Made by a program: the position numbers and the translations under genes. A model generated the notes under the pieces. The model saw only the letters and a list, made by a program, of their open reading frames with translations. It did no database searches and had not been told where the DNA came from. 32,399 nt of DNA from Sulfurihydrogenibium sp. (GTDB lineage: Bacteria; Aquificota; Aquificia; Aquificales; Hydrogenothermaceae). The stretch lies in NCBI GenBank assembly GCA_037442825.1, contig JBBIPN010000007.1, positions 1-32,399 on the forward strand, written 5' to 3'. Below are positions 15,905 to 23,751 of the stretch, piece by piece (within the stretch, counting starts at the first letter, position 1; every line of letters begins with the position of its first letter).

Positions 15905-16252
15905 TTATAATTCTTCTTCACTATCTCCATCTATACTATCAAATAAAGTAAATCCGTCTATATCTAACCCTTTAATTTTTAATGCAGTTTCTCTTAAAAG
16001 TTCTAAATATGATGCTATTTCTCTAAATGAATCAAGCATAGCAGAAAGTTTTAGTACCTCTTCTGGTGTTAATTTCTTTTCGTATATTTTTATAGCTTTT
16101 TTTATTGCAGCTTTGGTAACTACAATTTCTCCTGCTTTTTTTTGCCATTCACTCCAAAATTCGTTAGTTCCAAGGGGGCTTTTTATTATGAACCTATCTA
16201 AATTTGTTATTTCTTGTGCTAAAAGCATCTCAAAGTCTGTGAATTTTTCCAT
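15905..16252 (-). CDS. Hypothetical helical protein with acidic tail
   Basis: 115-aa ORF with a GAGG RBS that fills the gap between guaB and pgk in the same orientation; no family recognised. Confidence 0.8.
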   Translation of the reverse strand: MEKFTDFEMLLAQEITNLDRFIIKSPLGTNEFWSEWQKKAGEIVVTKAAIKKAIKIYEKKLTPEEVLKLSAMLDSFREIASYLELLRETALKIKGLDIDGFTLFDSIDGDSEEEL

Positions 16253-17749: not shown

Positions 17750-17770
17750 CTAAGGATAATTTAAATTTAT

Positions 17771-17795
17771 ATTTTACCATATTTTGTGGTAAAAT
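17771..17795. promoter_or_regulatory. 9-7-9 inverted repeat forming divergent extended -10 elements (guaB / thrC-like)
   Basis: ATTTTACCA-TATTTTG-TGGTAAAAT; each arm reads TGnTAAAAT on its own strand. Confidence 0.6.
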
Positions 17796-17827
17796 TGATA
17801 TTATTTATTCTTTGGGAGGATTAATAA

Positions 17828-19057
17828 TTGGCGAAAGTAAAAGCTTTGAAATGTAAAGAATGTGGAGCTGAATATCCTGTAGAACCTATCCATGTTTGTG
17901 AATTTTGTTTTGGACCATTGGAGATTGTTTATGATTATGAAGAGATAAAAAAGAATATATCAAAAGATAAAATAGAGAAAGGTCCCAAAAGCCTTTGGAG
18001 GTATATAGACCTTCTTCCAGTTGAAAATCCTACAGTTGGTTTATCTGCTGGTTTTACACCACTTGTAAAAGCTGAAAATTTAGGAAAACTACTTGGATTA
18101 AACAATTTATATATAAAAGATGACTCAGTAAACCATCTAACATTATCCTTTAAAGATAGGGTAGTAGCTGTTGCTCTTTCGAAAGCAAAAGAGTTTGGTT
18201 TTGATACAGCAGCATGTGCATCTACTGGTAATCTTGCAAATTCTGTTTCTGCACATGCAGCAGCTGCTGGTATGAAATGTTATGTTTTTATACCTGCAAA
18301 TCTTGAGACAAACAAAATTATTGGTAGCTTAGTTTTTAATCCAGTTGTTGTAGCTGTTGATGGTAATTATGATGATGTAAATAGATTGTCTTCTGAAATT
18401 GCAAATGAATTTGGTTGGGCTTTTGTAAATATAAACGTTAGACCATTTTATTCAGAAGGTTCTAAAACACTTGCTTTTGAAGTTGCAGAACAACTTGGAT
18501 GGAAAACACCAGATGTTGTAGTTACACCTCTTGCTTCTGGTTCTCTTTACACTAAGATATGGAAAGGATTTAATGAACTTATAGAAGTTGGATTAGTGGA
18601 TGGAAAATTACCAAGGATGCTTGGAGCTCAAGCTGAAGGCTGCAGTCCAATATATCAAGCTTTAAAGGAAGGAAGAGATTTTATAAAACCTGTAAAACCA
18701 AATACAATAGCTAAGTCTATAGCTATAGGTAACCCTGCTGATGGTCCTTATGCAATAAAAGTTGCAAAAGAAAGCAAAGGAGATATACAGATAGCAACAG
18801 ATGAAGAAGTAATAGAAGGTATTAAGCTTCTTGCAAAAACAGAAGGCATATTTACAGAAACAGCTGGTGGTACAACTATAGCTGTACTTAAAAAGTATGT
18901 AGAGATGGGAATGATAGATAAAGATGAAGTAGTTGTTGCATATATTACTGGAAATGGCTATAAAACTATGGAGGTTTTAGAAGGAAAGTTGGAAAAACCA
19001 ATTCATATAAAACCATCTTTAGCTGAATTTAAAGAAAAAGTTATTAAAAAATCATAA
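17828..19057 (+). CDS. Threonine synthase-like PLP enzyme (fold type II), sulfur-carrier-associated clade
   Basis: N-terminal CKEC...CEFC Zn ribbon, PLP lysine motif TLSFKDR, ASTGNLA, EGSKTLAFE, ITGNGYK; followed by a ubiquitin-like sulfur carrier. Confidence 0.9.
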   Translation: MAKVKALKCKECGAEYPVEPIHVCEFCFGPLEIVYDYEEIKKNISKDKIEKGPKSLWRYIDLLPVENPTVGLSAGFTPLVKAENLGKLLGLNNLYIKDDSVNHLTLSFKDRVVAVALSKAKEFGFDTAACASTGNLANSVSAHAAAAGMKCYVFIPANLETNKIIGSLVFNPVVVAVDGNYDDVNRLSSEIANEFGWAFVNINVRPFYSEGSKTLAFEVAEQLGWKTPDVVVTPLASGSLYTKIWKGFNELIEVGLVDGKLPRMLGAQAEGCSPIYQALKEGRDFIKPVKPNTIAKSIAIGNPADGPYAIKVAKESKGDIQIATDEEVIEGIKLLAKTEGIFTETAGGTTIAVLKKYVEMGMIDKDEVVVAYITGNGYKTMEVLEGKLEKPIHIKPSLAEFKEKVIKKS

Positions 19058-19070
19058 GGAGGTTAAATAA

Positions 19071-19349
19071 ATGGCAGTTACTGTAAGAATACCAACAGCT
19101 TTAAGAAGAATAACACAAGGACAAGGAGAAGTCCAGATTGCAGGATCTAATATAGCTGAACTTATTGAGAATTTAGAAAAAGAGTTCCCTGGTATAAAAG
19201 AAAGACTTGTAGATGAAAATGGAGAAATAAGAAGATTTGTAAATTTCTTTATAAATGATGAAGACATTAGATTTTTAAATGGCAAGGATACACAACTAAA
19301 AGATGGAGATGTAGTTGCTATTATACCGGCAATAGCTGGAGGATTCTAA
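19071..19349 (+). CDS. MoaD/ThiS/CysO-family ubiquitin-like sulfur carrier protein
   Basis: VRIPTALR, RRFVNFFINDEDIRFL, C-terminal IIPAIAGG-F. Confidence 0.92.
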   Translation: MAVTVRIPTALRRITQGQGEVQIAGSNIAELIENLEKEFPGIKERLVDENGEIRRFVNFFINDEDIRFLNGKDTQLKDGDVVAIIPAIAGGF

Positions 19350-19350
19350 A

Positions 19351-19593
19351 ATGAACTCTATGAAAGTTAAACTTATCTATCCAGAAGATAAGATAAAGGA
19401 ACCTATTTTAAGTAAAGTATGTAAAACATTTGATGTAGACTTAAACATAAGAAAAGCAAATGTCCAAGAAAAAATAGGTTGGTTAGAGTTAGAGATATTA
19501 GGAAAAGAAGAAGAAATAGAAAAAGCTATAAACTTTTTAATTCAAAATGGTATCGAAGTCCAACCAATAGAAGGGCAGGTTTTTACTGAATAA
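19351..19593 (+). CDS. Standalone NIL-domain protein
   Basis: KLIYP...EPILSK....FDVDLNIRKANV....GWLELEI.G...AINFL...GIEV fits the NIL (MetN C-terminal, ACT-like) domain pattern. Confidence 0.82.
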   Translation: MNSMKVKLIYPEDKIKEPILSKVCKTFDVDLNIRKANVQEKIGWLELEILGKEEEIEKAINFLIQNGIEVQPIEGQVFTE

Positions 19594-20508
19594 ATGGCTA
19601 AAAAAATAGCTATAGTAGATATAGGAACATACTCTATACGAATGTTAATAGTAGCCATCCATAGTGATGGCTATTTTGATGAAATCCTTTCTTTAGGTAG
19701 GATTACAGCATTAGGTAGAAAACTTAAAGATACAGGATTTTTATTAAAAGAAGCAATGGAAGAAACCTTAGCTGTTTTAAAGGAGTATGTTTTAATAGCA
19801 AAAGAATATAAAGTAGATAAAATTATAGCGGTAGCTACACAAGCTTGTAGAGAAGCAAAAAATGCCGGTGATTTTATAGAAAATGTTATAAATTTAGGTA
19901 TAGATGTAAGAATAATATCTGGAGAAGAAGAAGCAAAACTATCTTTTTTAGCAACATCAAAAGCTTTAAATATAGAAGAAAACTTTACAGTTATAGATCA
20001 AGGTGGTGGAAGTACTGAATTTTCTTATGGGAATAAAGACAATATAATATACTCAATATCTTTTCCTTTTGGTATAGTAAATCTTACAGAAAGATTTATA
20101 AAATCAGATCCACCAAAACCAGAAGAACTTCAAAATATGAAAGATTTTATAAAAAATCAAATACAAACTGCATATGAAAACATGAAAGATACAAAAAAAC
20201 TTGTAGGACTTGGTGGAACTATTACTACAGTTGTTGCCCTTGAGTACAACATATACCCTTATGATTCAAAAAAAGTCCATGGTAAAACATTAACATACGA
20301 TACTATTACAAAATGGCTTGAAAAATTAGCTTCAATGACATTAAACAAAAGAAAAGCTATTCCTATGATAGAAGATAAAAGGGCAGAAGCTATAGTTTCA
20401 GGTATAGAAATATTCCAAACAGCTATGGAAGTGTTTAATAAAGATGAAATTACTGTAAGTGAGTGGGGATTAAGACACGGTATTGTTTTTGAAAATTTGA
20501 AGAATTGA
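19594..20508 (+). CDS. Ppx/GppA family exopolyphosphatase / pppGpp phosphohydrolase (short form)
   Basis: IAIVDIGTYSIR, ATQACREA, ISGEEEA, DQGGGSTE, GLGGT, GLRHG. Confidence 0.93.
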   Translation: MAKKIAIVDIGTYSIRMLIVAIHSDGYFDEILSLGRITALGRKLKDTGFLLKEAMEETLAVLKEYVLIAKEYKVDKIIAVATQACREAKNAGDFIENVINLGIDVRIISGEEEAKLSFLATSKALNIEENFTVIDQGGGSTEFSYGNKDNIIYSISFPFGIVNLTERFIKSDPPKPEELQNMKDFIKNQIQTAYENMKDTKKLVGLGGTITTVVALEYNIYPYDSKKVHGKTLTYDTITKWLEKLASMTLNKRKAIPMIEDKRAEAIVSGIEIFQTAMEVFNKDEITVSEWGLRHGIVFENLKN

Positions 20509-20523
20509 TATATCATATTTCCT

Positions 20524-22509
20524 ATGAAAAAAACATTTAATTTAAAATCAACATTTAAACCAACTGGAGACCAACCAAAAGCTATAAAACAGCTTTATGA
20601 AAATCTAAAATCTGGTGTTAATGAACAAGTTTTGCTTGGGGCAACAGGTACAGGTAAAACCTTTACAATAGCAAATCTAATTGAAAAGTATAGTAAACCA
20701 ACCTTAATAATATCCCATAATAAAACGTTGGCAGCTCAGTTGTATAGAGAAATTAAAGAGATATTCCCTGACAATGCTGTAGAATACTTTGTTTCTTATT
20801 ATGACTATTATCAACCAGAAGCTTACATACCACAAAAAGATCTATACATAGAAAAAGACAGTGCTATAAACGATTCTATTGACAGGTTGAGACACTCTGC
20901 TACAAGAAGTTTGATAGAGAGACAAGATACTATAGTTGTTGCTTCTGTATCTTGTATATATGGTCTTGGAACACCAGAATTTTATGAGAAACTTAGACTT
21001 CAAATATATAAAGGAATGGAGATAGATAGACAGACATTTTTAAAGAAACTTGTCGAACTTCAATATCAAAGAGATGACTTTTCATTAAAAAGGGGGACAT
21101 TTAAAGTAAAAGGGGATACAATAGAGATTTTACCAGCTTATACAGAAGACATTATTATAAGGGTTGAGTTTTTTGGAGATGAGATCGATTTTATCTCTGA
21201 GATAGATATATTTAATAGAGATATAAAAAGAAAATTAGATAGAACAGTTATATTTCCAGCAAGTCATTACGTAATTCCAAGAACAGATATGATTGAAGCT
21301 ATAAAACAGATACAAAAAGATTTAGAAAAAGAAGTAGAAGAGTTTAGAAAAGCTGAGAAAGAAATAGAGGCAAACAGATTATGGCAAAGGACAAACTATG
21401 ATATAGAGATGATGTTAGAAATTGGAACATGTAAAGGAATAGAAAATTATTCACGATACTTTGATAGAAGAAAACCAGGAGAGCCGCCTTACACACTTAT
21501 TGATTACTTTCCAGAGGACTTTTTACTTATAATAGATGAATCCCATGTTACTATTCCACAGATAAAAGCTATGTATAATGGAGATTTATCAAGGAAAGAA
21601 AACTTGGTTAAATATGGATGGAGAATGAAATCAGCTTATGACAACAGGCCTTTAAAATTTGAAGAATTTATCAGTAAAATACAGAAAGCTATTTATGTAT
21701 CTGCAACACCATCCCAATGGGAGATAGAAAAGTCAAAAGGCATTGTTGTTGAACAGATAATAAGACCAACAGGATTACTTGACCCCATAATTGAAGTAAA
21801 GAAAACAGAAGGACAGATAGATGACCTTATGTCAGAGATTTGGAAAATAAAAGAGAGAAATGAAAGGGCTCTTGTTATAACACTTACAAAAAAGATGGCA
21901 GAACATTTAGCAGATTATCTACAAGAGAGAGATATAAAAGCTGTATACCTTCATTCAGAGATTGATACAATAGAGAGAGTTAAGATTATAAAAGATTTAA
22001 GGGAAGGAAAGTATGATGTTATTGTTGGAGTAAATCTTCTAAGAGAAGGTCTTGATATGCCAGAAGTTTCCTTAGTTGCAGTATTAGATGCAGATAAACA
22101 AGGATTTTTAAGGTCTAAAACAGCTCTTATACAAACAATAGGAAGATCCGCAAGAAACGTAAATGGAAAAGCAATCTTATACGCTGATAAATTAACCCCA
22201 GCTATGATCGAAACAATAGAAGAAACAAACAGAAGGAGAAAGATACAGCAAGAGTACAATGAAAAACATGGTATAACACCAAAAACAGTATCAAAGGAAA
22301 TAAAAGACCTTATCTCTTTAGAAGAACTTGGAATATTAGAGTTATATCAACAACTGCCAGATGATATAACATCAGAGGAAGATTTATTAGAGAAAATATC
22401 TAAACTTGAAAAGCAGATGTGGGAATACGCTAAAAATTGGGAGTTTGAAAAAGCTGCAGAAATAAGGGATAAGTTGGAGAAACTTAAAAAGTTAGCTACT
22501 GTTTTATAA
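20524..22509 (+). CDS. uvrB: Excinuclease ABC subunit B
   Basis: [47 protein letters not shown]-terminal UVR domain (FEKAAEIRD). Confidence 0.98.
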
Positions 22510-22755: not shown

Positions 22756-23751
22756 ATGAAAGAGTTTATCCTTGACGCAAGAAATATACCTAAACATATA
22801 ATTACAACAGCTATAGAATCTGGTGTTGATTATATACTCATAGACGAAAATCAACAAAATGAGATAAAGAAATTAGGAAGAGTGAAACTTATTATTAAAG
22901 ACAAAGAGGGAAATTTAACAGAGGATTTTGTTATTGTAAAAATAGAAAATAAAGCAGATGAAGAAAAAGCTGCAAATTTAGCAAAAATGGGTAAAAAGGT
23001 TATTGTAGAAACTACAGATTGGACCATCATACCATTAGAAAACCTTATAGCACAATCACCAAATATTTATTCTATCGTAAAGAATGCTGAAGAAGCAAAA
23101 ACATCTGTTGGAATTCTGGAAAAAGGCATAAAAGGTGTTGTTTTAAAAACAGATAATATAAATGAAGTTAAAAAAGTTGCTAAAGTGTTAAAAGAAGAAA
23201 GTGAAAAATTGAATCTTGTAAAGGCTAAAGTTATAAAAATTGTTCCTATAGGAATGGGTGATAGGGTAGCTGTTGACACAACCTCTATCTTAAAACGTGG
23301 AGAAGGGATGTTAGTTGGAAACTCATCAGCAGGAATGTTACTTGTCCATGCTGAGACAGAAGAGTCTGAGTATGTTGCAGCAAGACCTTTTAGAGTAAAT
23401 GCAGGTGCAGTCCATATGTATACAAAAATACCAAATGGAAAAACTACATATCTAAGTGAACTTTCTGCTGGAAAAGAAGTTATAGTTTATGATTATCAAG
23501 GTAATGGTAGAGTTGTTTATGTTGGTAGGTCTAAGGTAGAAAGAAGACCAATGTTGTTAGTTGAAGCAGAGTATGAAGGTAAAAAACTCTCAGCAGTTTT
23601 ACAGAATGCAGAAACAATAAGATTAGTAAAACCTGATGGTAGCCCAATATCTGTTGTAGATTTAAGAGTTGGGGATGAAATTTTAGGTTATGTAGAAGAA
23701 GCAGGTAGGCATTTTGGTATGAAGGTAGAAGAAACAATATTGGAGAAGTAG
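22756..23751 (+). CDS. 3-dehydroquinate synthase II (archaeal-type AroB')
   Basis: DWTIIPLENLIA, GDRVAVDT, RPFRVNAGAVH, YLSEL, LQNAETIRL, GRHFGM, typical of the DHQS-II family. Confidence 0.92.
   Translation: MKEFILDARNIPKHIITTAIESGVDYILIDENQQNEIKKLGRVKLIIKDKEGNLTEDFVIVKIENKADEEKAANLAKMGKKVIVETTDWTIIPLENLIAQSPNIYSIVKNAEEAKTSVGILEKGIKGVVLKTDNINEVKKVAKVLKEESEKLNLVKAKVIKIVPIGMGDRVAVDTTSILKRGEGMLVGNSSAGMLLVHAETEESEYVAARPFRVNAGAVHMYTKIPNGKTTYLSELSAGKEVIVYDYQGNGRVVYVGRSKVERRPMLLVEAEYEGKKLSAVLQNAETIRLVKPDGSPISVVDLRVGDEILGYVEEAGRHFGMKVEETILEK

Follow-up and report, generated by a model that had tools for sequence, protein, structure and literature searches.

A threonine synthase-like gene beside a sulfur carrier

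Does a thrC-like gene still encode a threonine synthase when it is followed by the gene of a sulfur carrier, or does its product insert sulfur into an amino acid? The question is raised by three adjacent genes of Sulfurihydrogenibium sp. (assembly GCA_037442825.1, contig JBBIPN010000007.1), which encode a pyridoxal 5'-phosphate (PLP) enzyme, a ubiquitin-fold sulfur carrier and a free-standing NIL protein; the whole stretch analysed, positions 1 to 32,399 of the forward strand (32,399 nucleotides), is referred to as the window. From sequence comparison, a probability of roughly 0.85 was assigned to the explanation that enzyme and carrier would be a MetM/MetO pair making homocysteine and that the NIL protein would be a methionine-sensing partner of the enzyme. 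The module is very probably the Aquificales version of the MetM/MetO homocysteine route, with its steps running from ThrB through MetE; the part given to NIL, a methionine-sensing feedback subunit of the enzyme, is tentative and falls slightly short of an even chance.

MetM and MetO, together with Mec and MoeZ, were reportedly described from Streptomyces albulus by Hasebe et al. in 2024 (Appl Environ Microbiol 90:e01247-24). In GapMind 2026, S. albulus MetM, MetO, Mec and MoeZ are listed as a route, backed by experiments, that leads from O-phosphohomoserine to homocysteine; a preliminary description of this DNA had likewise named a Streptomyces threonine synthase homologue which, with a carrier, reportedly makes homocysteine. 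The same source states that MetM is often misannotated as threonine synthase, and the S. albulus pair (Hasebe et al. 2024) is also cited in PMC13759103, PMC12172450 and bioRxiv 10.64898/2026.09.15.751699. No Aquificota name was found in the GapMind 2026 supplements for the names looked up, and among the matches listed for Aquifex, homocysteine and thrC in the literature none concerned this module, as judged by title or abstract. Aquifex aeolicus is presented in Price et al. 2018 (PMC5764234) as being without every homocysteine route then known; Wolinella protein-thiocarboxylate methionine synthesis appears there as a reference.

Methionine, threonine and cysteine genes of the genome

The genome was 99.16% complete (137 contigs), and each family searched gave matches in control genomes. 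Four PALP enzymes were identified: the window enzyme, a canonical ThrC (C44:8326-9396, E 4e-184 to PDB 2zsj) which is 40% identical to it, a CysM (C16:5715-6665, over the TIGR01138 cut-off) which is 21% identical to it, and a TrpB recognised from its sequence. ThrB and MetE were present, as were a JAMM protease of the Mec type (C60:1057-1476) and a single ThiF/MoeB protein on C25, whose 275 amino acids (aa) scored under every full-length MoeZ/MoeB equivalog cut-off. Family searches of this genome did not find MetA, MetX, DUF39 or CysE, and for true MetB/MetY gave short weak matches only (the best 27.5 bits over 126 of 381 positions). As MetE was found and MetA, MetX, MetB/MetY and DUF39 were not, a methionine synthase is present without a classical homocysteine route. 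The preliminary description had looked to a second, canonical thrC and to the lack of metA, metX, metB, metY and cysK as signs of a sulfur-inserting enzyme: the second thrC exists, and the lack extends to the methionine genes (and DUF39) but not to cysteine synthase, a CysM being encoded.

Distribution across the phylum

A profile was compiled for 177 other genomes and the organism's own (178), the window's own family (f1), its sister family (f2) and families f3, f4 and f5 comprising 49, 90, 8, 2 and 28 genomes, respectively. Orthologues of the enzyme, counted by hand with fragments included, occurred in 48/49 f1 and 79/90 f2 genomes (9 of the 11 f2 misses were less than 90% complete) and in none of the 8, 2 and 28 genomes of f3, f4 and f5. 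The carrier (f1 47/49, f2 82/90) and Mec (f1 46/49, f2 86/90, with one protein as query) were both found in 0/8, 0/2 and 0/28 genomes of the remaining families, and NIL was found in 46/49, 74/90, 0/8, 1/2 and 24/28 genomes of f1 to f5. The MetB family (E of at most 1e-40, PRK08574 over its cut-off) was confined to f3 (8/8), and DUF39 was confined to f4 (2/2) and f5 (28/28; 30/30 together). The three homocysteine routes are mutually exclusive within the phylum. Six f3 loci in which the module is missing (L051-L056) were seen to carry a PRK08574-type enzyme of the cystathionine gamma-synthase family.

Among genomes at least 90% complete, a CysM orthologue was present in 34/34 (f1), 55/58 (f2), 6/6 (f3), 0/1 (f4) and 0/18 (f5). 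Because f3 keeps CysM without carrier, Mec or NIL, these three follow the enzyme described here and not CysM. CysE was found in none of the 98 Aquificales genomes at least 90% complete; with CysM near-universal in the order, this suggests that cysteine is made there from O-phosphoserine, which f3 does without the carrier.

The enzyme groups apart from canonical threonine synthase

The family calls of the preliminary description held for all three proteins. The enzyme matched the fold type II PALP family (231.8 bits, cut-off 35), the carrier the ThiS/MoaD family (NCBIfam and Pfam profiles) and the third protein the NIL domain (65 bits, cut-off 24). The closest named homologues of the enzyme were Sulfurihydrogenibium proteins (93%), and an A. 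aeolicus protein named threonine synthase (P0061) was 82% identical. Like canonical ThrC (PDB 2zsj, 1uim and 6cgq), the enzyme has fold type II, the SFKDR motif with the PLP lysine and O-phosphohomoserine as its predicted substrate; unlike canonical ThrC, it carries an N-terminal four-Cys extension and other active-site motifs.

A Nonomuraea locus served as a proxy for MetM/MetO: a S-adenosylmethionine (SAM) riboswitch (68.7 bits) is followed there by an enzyme 53% identical to the window's and then by a carrier 47% identical. In a quick tree the window enzyme, the Nonomuraea protein and carrier-linked proteins of many phyla formed one 28-row clade (SH-aLRT, the Shimodaira-Hasegawa-like approximate likelihood ratio test, 99), six canonical ThrC proteins formed a separate clade (SH-aLRT 99), and four other long ThrC-like proteins lay outside both on long branches. 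The phylogeny with ThrC and MetM that had been proposed earlier sets the enzyme apart from canonical ThrC, the Nonomuraea protein standing in for MetM. The active-site motifs were consistent with this split, STGNL and RP[YF]YxEGSK in the 28-row clade against STGNT and NPxRxEGQK in canonical ThrC; neither STGNT nor the longer NSxNPxRxEGQK occurs in the window enzyme, which is also not placed in the ThrC clade.

Positions T88, F134, N157, R160 and Q164 of Thermus ThrC correspond to L136, Y181, R205, Y208 and S212 of the enzyme, and these five were invariant in 120/120 listed homologues. T88 and R160 are presumed phosphate binders; a literature search on the phosphate-site residues of threonine synthase gave nothing usable. 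Cys9, Cys12, Cys24 and Cys27 were equally invariant (120/120), and this Zn-ribbon motif was rejected as diagnostic of the enzyme type because it is found in unrelated ThrC-like proteins too. A MetM-like reading would correct the thrC label that is widespread on this enzyme.

One residue of the window enzyme is unusual: Leu104 (window 18137-18139), five residues before the PLP lysine, is Pro in 120/120 listed homologues. The Leu allele was present in contigs of sequencing runs X1 and X2 and the Pro allele in X3 and X4, a split which makes Leu104 look like a strain variant and not an assembly error.

The carrier and the proposed route

The best solved relatives of the carrier were the ThiS/MoaD protein 4n6e_B and 3dwg_C, the latter of which we take to be mycobacterial CysO, in agreement with the MoaD/CysO-like character first ascribed to it. 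In mycobacterial CysM/CysO/Mec and in Wolinella methionine synthesis, a ubiquitin-fold thiocarboxylate is said to donate the sulfur, and a JAMM protease to perform trimming and release. The PLP enzymes of those two systems are of other families, and their substrates are phosphoserine and O-acetylhomoserine, respectively. As the window's carrier ends in Gly-Gly-Phe, it would need trimming.

The steps proposed below are all drawn from homology and genome content. ThrB would make O-phosphohomoserine, a substrate common to this enzyme and the separate canonical ThrC. Mec would trim Phe92 from the carrier and expose Gly-Gly; the single MoeB/ThiF would then adenylate the carrier, and a sulfur donor would turn it into the thiocarboxylate. 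The PLP enzyme would eliminate phosphate, with the carrier thiocarboxylate adding at the gamma carbon, and an S-to-N acyl shift, presumed by analogy with CysM/CysO, would give carrier-homocysteine, from which Mec would release homocysteine for methylation to methionine by MetE. Finally, a NIL dimer may hold methionine at its interface, in the manner of MetN C2, and dampen the enzyme's activity, so that phosphohomoserine would be steered between methionine and threonine.

The module resembles S. albulus MetM/MetO in having a PLP enzyme homologous to ThrC and, beside it, a CysO-type carrier, in the presence of Mec, an E1 and ThrB in a genome where classical MetA/X/B/Y were not found, and in the position of its enzyme in the clade of a SAM-riboswitch-led actinobacterial pair. 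It differs in its additional stand-alone NIL gene, in the lack of a SAM riboswitch and in the C-terminal extension of its carrier; the 275-aa MoeB of the genome is also much shorter than MoeZ models, which span about 390 positions.

Two further observations concern carriers. The stretch after Gly-Gly varies freely from 0 to 8 residues (window 19071-19349; L014-L043 and L179-L186), in keeping with an extension that can be dispensed with. At L177:2-2215 (genome G034), sulfite/nitrite reductase and APS/PAPS (adenosine or phosphoadenosine phosphosulfate) reductase are fused in one protein that also has an internal MoaD-like domain; the genes after it resemble a TauE-type exporter, CysG and ATP sulfurylase, and about 20 f2 genomes have similar matches within long reading frames.

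The NIL protein as a candidate methionine sensor

The Aquificales NIL profile matched MetN C2 domains (E 7e-7), Asn32 and Ala36 of the window's protein aligning with MetN N295 and A299. In MetN, bound methionine forms a hydrogen bond with N295 that spans the C2 dimer, and binding is lost in the N295A mutant (PMC6233128). The two residues were invariant in 18 Aquificales NIL proteins and present in 86% and 91%, respectively, of 162 related domains. In its NIL fold, with equivalents of N295 and A299 conserved, the window's protein resembles MetN C2 and the NIL-ferredoxin of the DUF39 route (a subunit of L-aspartate semialdehyde sulfurtransferase); unlike these, it stands free, with no ATPase or ferredoxin attached. 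In each of the 16 f1 and f2 loci read, NIL was likewise a separate protein of about 80 aa; the 4 f4 and f5 loci read encode a protein of 136-138 aa, which in one of them was NIL-ferredoxin. In f2 the module genes are scattered and NIL is unlinked, yet it is 51-61% identical; its neighbours in that family gave no functional clue.

A co-fold with two chains each of enzyme and NIL reached a score of 0.59 (best of three controls, 0.02) and was graded as weak support; at least 58% of contacts agreed between runs, pLDDT (predicted local distance difference test) of the partner was at least 73, and the mark used is reached by 116/157 solved complexes and 2/215 mismatches. For the DUF39 enzyme, NIL has been put forward as a hypothetical means of methionine feedback (PMC12068725). 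Among the papers listed by a literature search, outside which Hasebe et al. 2024 lay, none was found that links NIL to MetM/MetO, and the listed papers that name the NIL domain concern the DUF39 route.

Loci were scanned with an alignment of carrier-NIL fusions, a broad NIL alignment being too variable for a locus search, and the best 80 of 601 confirmed stretches were examined; as the query selects for a carrier adjoining NIL, the counts give no frequency. This enzyme type was encoded in 71 of the 80 loci, MoeB in 29, Mec in 28 and a CysM/CysK type in 27, and canonical ThrC directly followed NIL in 9. Carrier, Gly-Gly and NIL lay in a single stop-free frame in 19, of which 18 were beside this enzyme and 14 had Mec. 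Among long NIL proteins, 8 of the 42 scanned were ThiS+NIL, in addition to one three-family chimera, and Mec-NIL (P0129), MoeB-NIL (P0241) and NIL-carrier (P0272) exist as single proteins; a search for longer NIL proteins gave 4 matches only, which is weak evidence. P0216 and P0274 appear to be chimeras. A further set (P0123, P0124, P0125, P0127, P0134, P0138, P0145, P0173, P0177, P0212 and P0250) consists of tandem NIL-NIL proteins, 164-185 aa long, which resemble a NIL dimer whose halves are covalently joined.

The fusions speak for a different role of NIL on the same MetM/MetO core, that of a structural or adaptor protein within the carrier cycle (a partner of the carrier, Mec or MoeB) which might gate, for example, maturation or charging. 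The robust ones join NIL to the carrier and not to the enzyme, others join it to Mec or MoeB, and the DUF39 route of f5, which is unrelated, employs NIL-ferredoxin. However, the link between carrier Gly-Gly and NIL would have to be cut for the carrier to work, which would free NIL; the weak co-fold pass was with the enzyme, the sole partner folded; and the Asn that contacts methionine is conserved. An adaptor role is a serious contender, although on balance a doubtful one.

Other activities considered for the enzyme

It is very unlikely that the enzyme is a second threonine synthase, or a moonlighter resembling threonine deaminase, with incidental neighbours. It scored 295 against TIGR00260 (thrC, cut-off 167), a score which does not discriminate because the Nonomuraea protein reaches 270 too. 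The best structural matches of its AlphaFold model (pLDDT 83.7) were threonine synthases; sequence and fold searches brought up no MetM structure, and ESM Atlas matches bore generic names only. A Microcystis homologue which is 51.6% identical to MetM and adjoins a MetO-like gene had threonine synthase and deaminase activity in vitro, in an assay described with Na2S and no charged carrier, and in its authors' view falls short of full MetM function in the cell (PMC12172450). Against a second threonine synthase stand the canonical ThrC of the genome, the five changed Thermus-equivalent positions, the fact that the organism would be left with no detectable homocysteine route, and the SAM riboswitches that precede relatives: of 47 of the 80 loci scanned with Rfam, all non-Aquificota, 16 had a same-strand upstream SAM riboswitch. 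A T-box with a likely AUG specifier preceded the enzyme-carrier-NIL genes in one of the 47 (L174:2393-2662, Armatimonadales). Many of the loci with such an RNA element are related Verrucomicrobia.

The TIGR00260 score and the Microcystis results count against a MetM/MetO homocysteine route with NIL as its sensor, and so do the following points. Orthology to MetM rests on the Nonomuraea proxy, because the S. albulus MetM sequence (UniProt A0A059WBP2) was not in the comparison, and no NIL ORF (open reading frame) follows the carrier in that Nonomuraea locus. The tree came from a quick IQ-TREE search of 40 rows with long-branch outgroups, and the phylum pattern represents about two independent contrasts, not 177. 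The Rfam scan gave no match in the window, hence no SAM riboswitch there, and no riboswitch at two sister-family loci either. Four genomes of 91-99% completeness (G102, G044, G002 and G011) carry the enzyme but gave no NIL match (rechecked without a positive control), which speaks against an essential role of NIL. Of the pairs that reach the co-fold mark, only 18 solved complexes do so at 0.60 or less, as do both mismatches, and the apparent joining of enzyme and NIL in P0261 and P0273 was put down to probable frameshifts.

A CysM/CysO-like cysteine synthase acting on O-phosphoserine is highly improbable. The carrier is CysO-like, CysE was not found in the Aquificales genomes at least 90% complete, and CysM/CysK-type genes recur in the carrier-NIL loci. 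The cysteine alternative is nevertheless disfavoured because a separate, dedicated CysM exists and one family (f3) keeps CysM without carrier, Mec, NIL or this enzyme; no CysK/CysM model was among the enzyme's 25 best NCBIfam matches, and the enzymes that replace it in other families belong to homocysteine routes. The earlier proposal of a sulfur-inserting synthase for methionine or cysteine, in place of a threonine synthase, is therefore supported for methionine and disfavoured for cysteine. A cysteate synthase, or another gamma- or beta-replacement enzyme serving a cofactor or lipid, can hardly be entertained, since similarity is weak both to TIGR03844 (89.6 bits, cut-off 324.9) and to PDB 9k3c (21% identity) and the homocysteine gap would be left unexplained.

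Organisation of the locus and neighbouring genes

Features of the locus are listed in Table 1. The tight linkage noted at the outset was confirmed, the three same-strand ORFs being separated by 13 nt (enzyme-carrier) and 1 nt (carrier-NIL).

Table 1. Position of the module genes and candidate expression signals in the window
Feature	Position	Strand	Basis
MetM-like PLP enzyme, 409 aa, TTG start	17828..19057	+	PALP, four-Cys motif, PLP Lys109, fold, phylum profile
MetO/CysO-type ubiquitin-fold sulfur carrier, 92 aa, C-terminus Gly-Gly-Phe	19071..19349	+	ThiS/MoaD family match, co-distribution
Stand-alone NIL protein, 80 aa, MetN C2 regulatory domain homologue	19351..19593	+	NIL match, MetN alignment
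Candidate promoter with extended -10 (TG-N-TAAAAT), in the 90-nt gap to the divergent guaB	17766..17795	+	consensus match
Shine-Dalgarno-like GGGAGG, before enzyme TTG start	17814..17819	+	sequence

The single promoter of the preliminary description fared less well, and the three-gene unit is not bounded. The candidate promoter is a consensus match (9/12 positions, with TG) at chance level, 20 such sites being seen in the scan against 24.1 expected; a similar TG-N-TAAAAT lay upstream of the module in 9/10 related loci displayed. Downstream, ppx follows NIL with a 0-nt gap, 15 nt separate uvrB from ppx, and a terminator scan of the locus found none on the + strand. The GGA-GGA codons of the carrier (19338-19343), at a distance of 7 nt from the NIL start downstream, could double as the ribosome-binding site of NIL.

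The order enzyme-carrier-NIL was kept in 24/30 best-scoring loci of the same family (own genome included); 3/30 had enzyme and carrier only and 3/30 the enzyme alone, two of the latter being cut by a contig end. The three-component form in this lineage had been supposed to be uncharacterised: the MetM/MetO core is published, and the three-gene form is not particular to the lineage either, since it occurs in many phyla and in the sister family the genes are dispersed.

Among the neighbours, ppx/gppA and uvrB occupy window positions 19594-22509, and the NIL-ppx adjacency is retained even where NIL sits apart from the enzyme (L065-L067). A 115-aa ORF between guaB and pgk (15905-16252, - strand) had no Pfam or NCBIfam match and is found at the same position in relatives with 61-71% identity. 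A 3-dehydroquinate synthase II (PF01959), presumably the enzyme of an alternative, archaeal-type entry into the shikimate pathway, is encoded at 22756-23751.

Implications

As the core chemistry of MetM/MetO is already published, the surprise here is limited, and the window's module is a variant of it by virtue of the NIL partner. What is added is an Aquificota profile that separates the carrier from CysM, a mapping of NIL residues onto MetN and a weak co-fold. It is possible, if leaning towards doubtful, that a dissociable NIL subunit of MetM lets Aquificales, which have no SAM riboswitch here, control the methionine/threonine branch allosterically, with a polyprotein form elsewhere. If so, the carrier-Gly-Gly-NIL polyprotein of several other phyla would have to be cut by the JAMM protease, much as ubiquitin fusions are, so that each carrier yields one sensor, and the same NIL domain would put methionine feedback on MetM and DUF39, two unrelated homocysteine synthases, and on the methionine importer. 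Were NIL the feedback subunit, a regulatory layer would be added to a pathway described only in 2024, and carrier-NIL would be a bacterial ubiquitin-style polyprotein. For the Aquificales, the module is a concrete candidate for the missing homocysteine step, the gap named for Aquifex aeolicus (PMC5764234).

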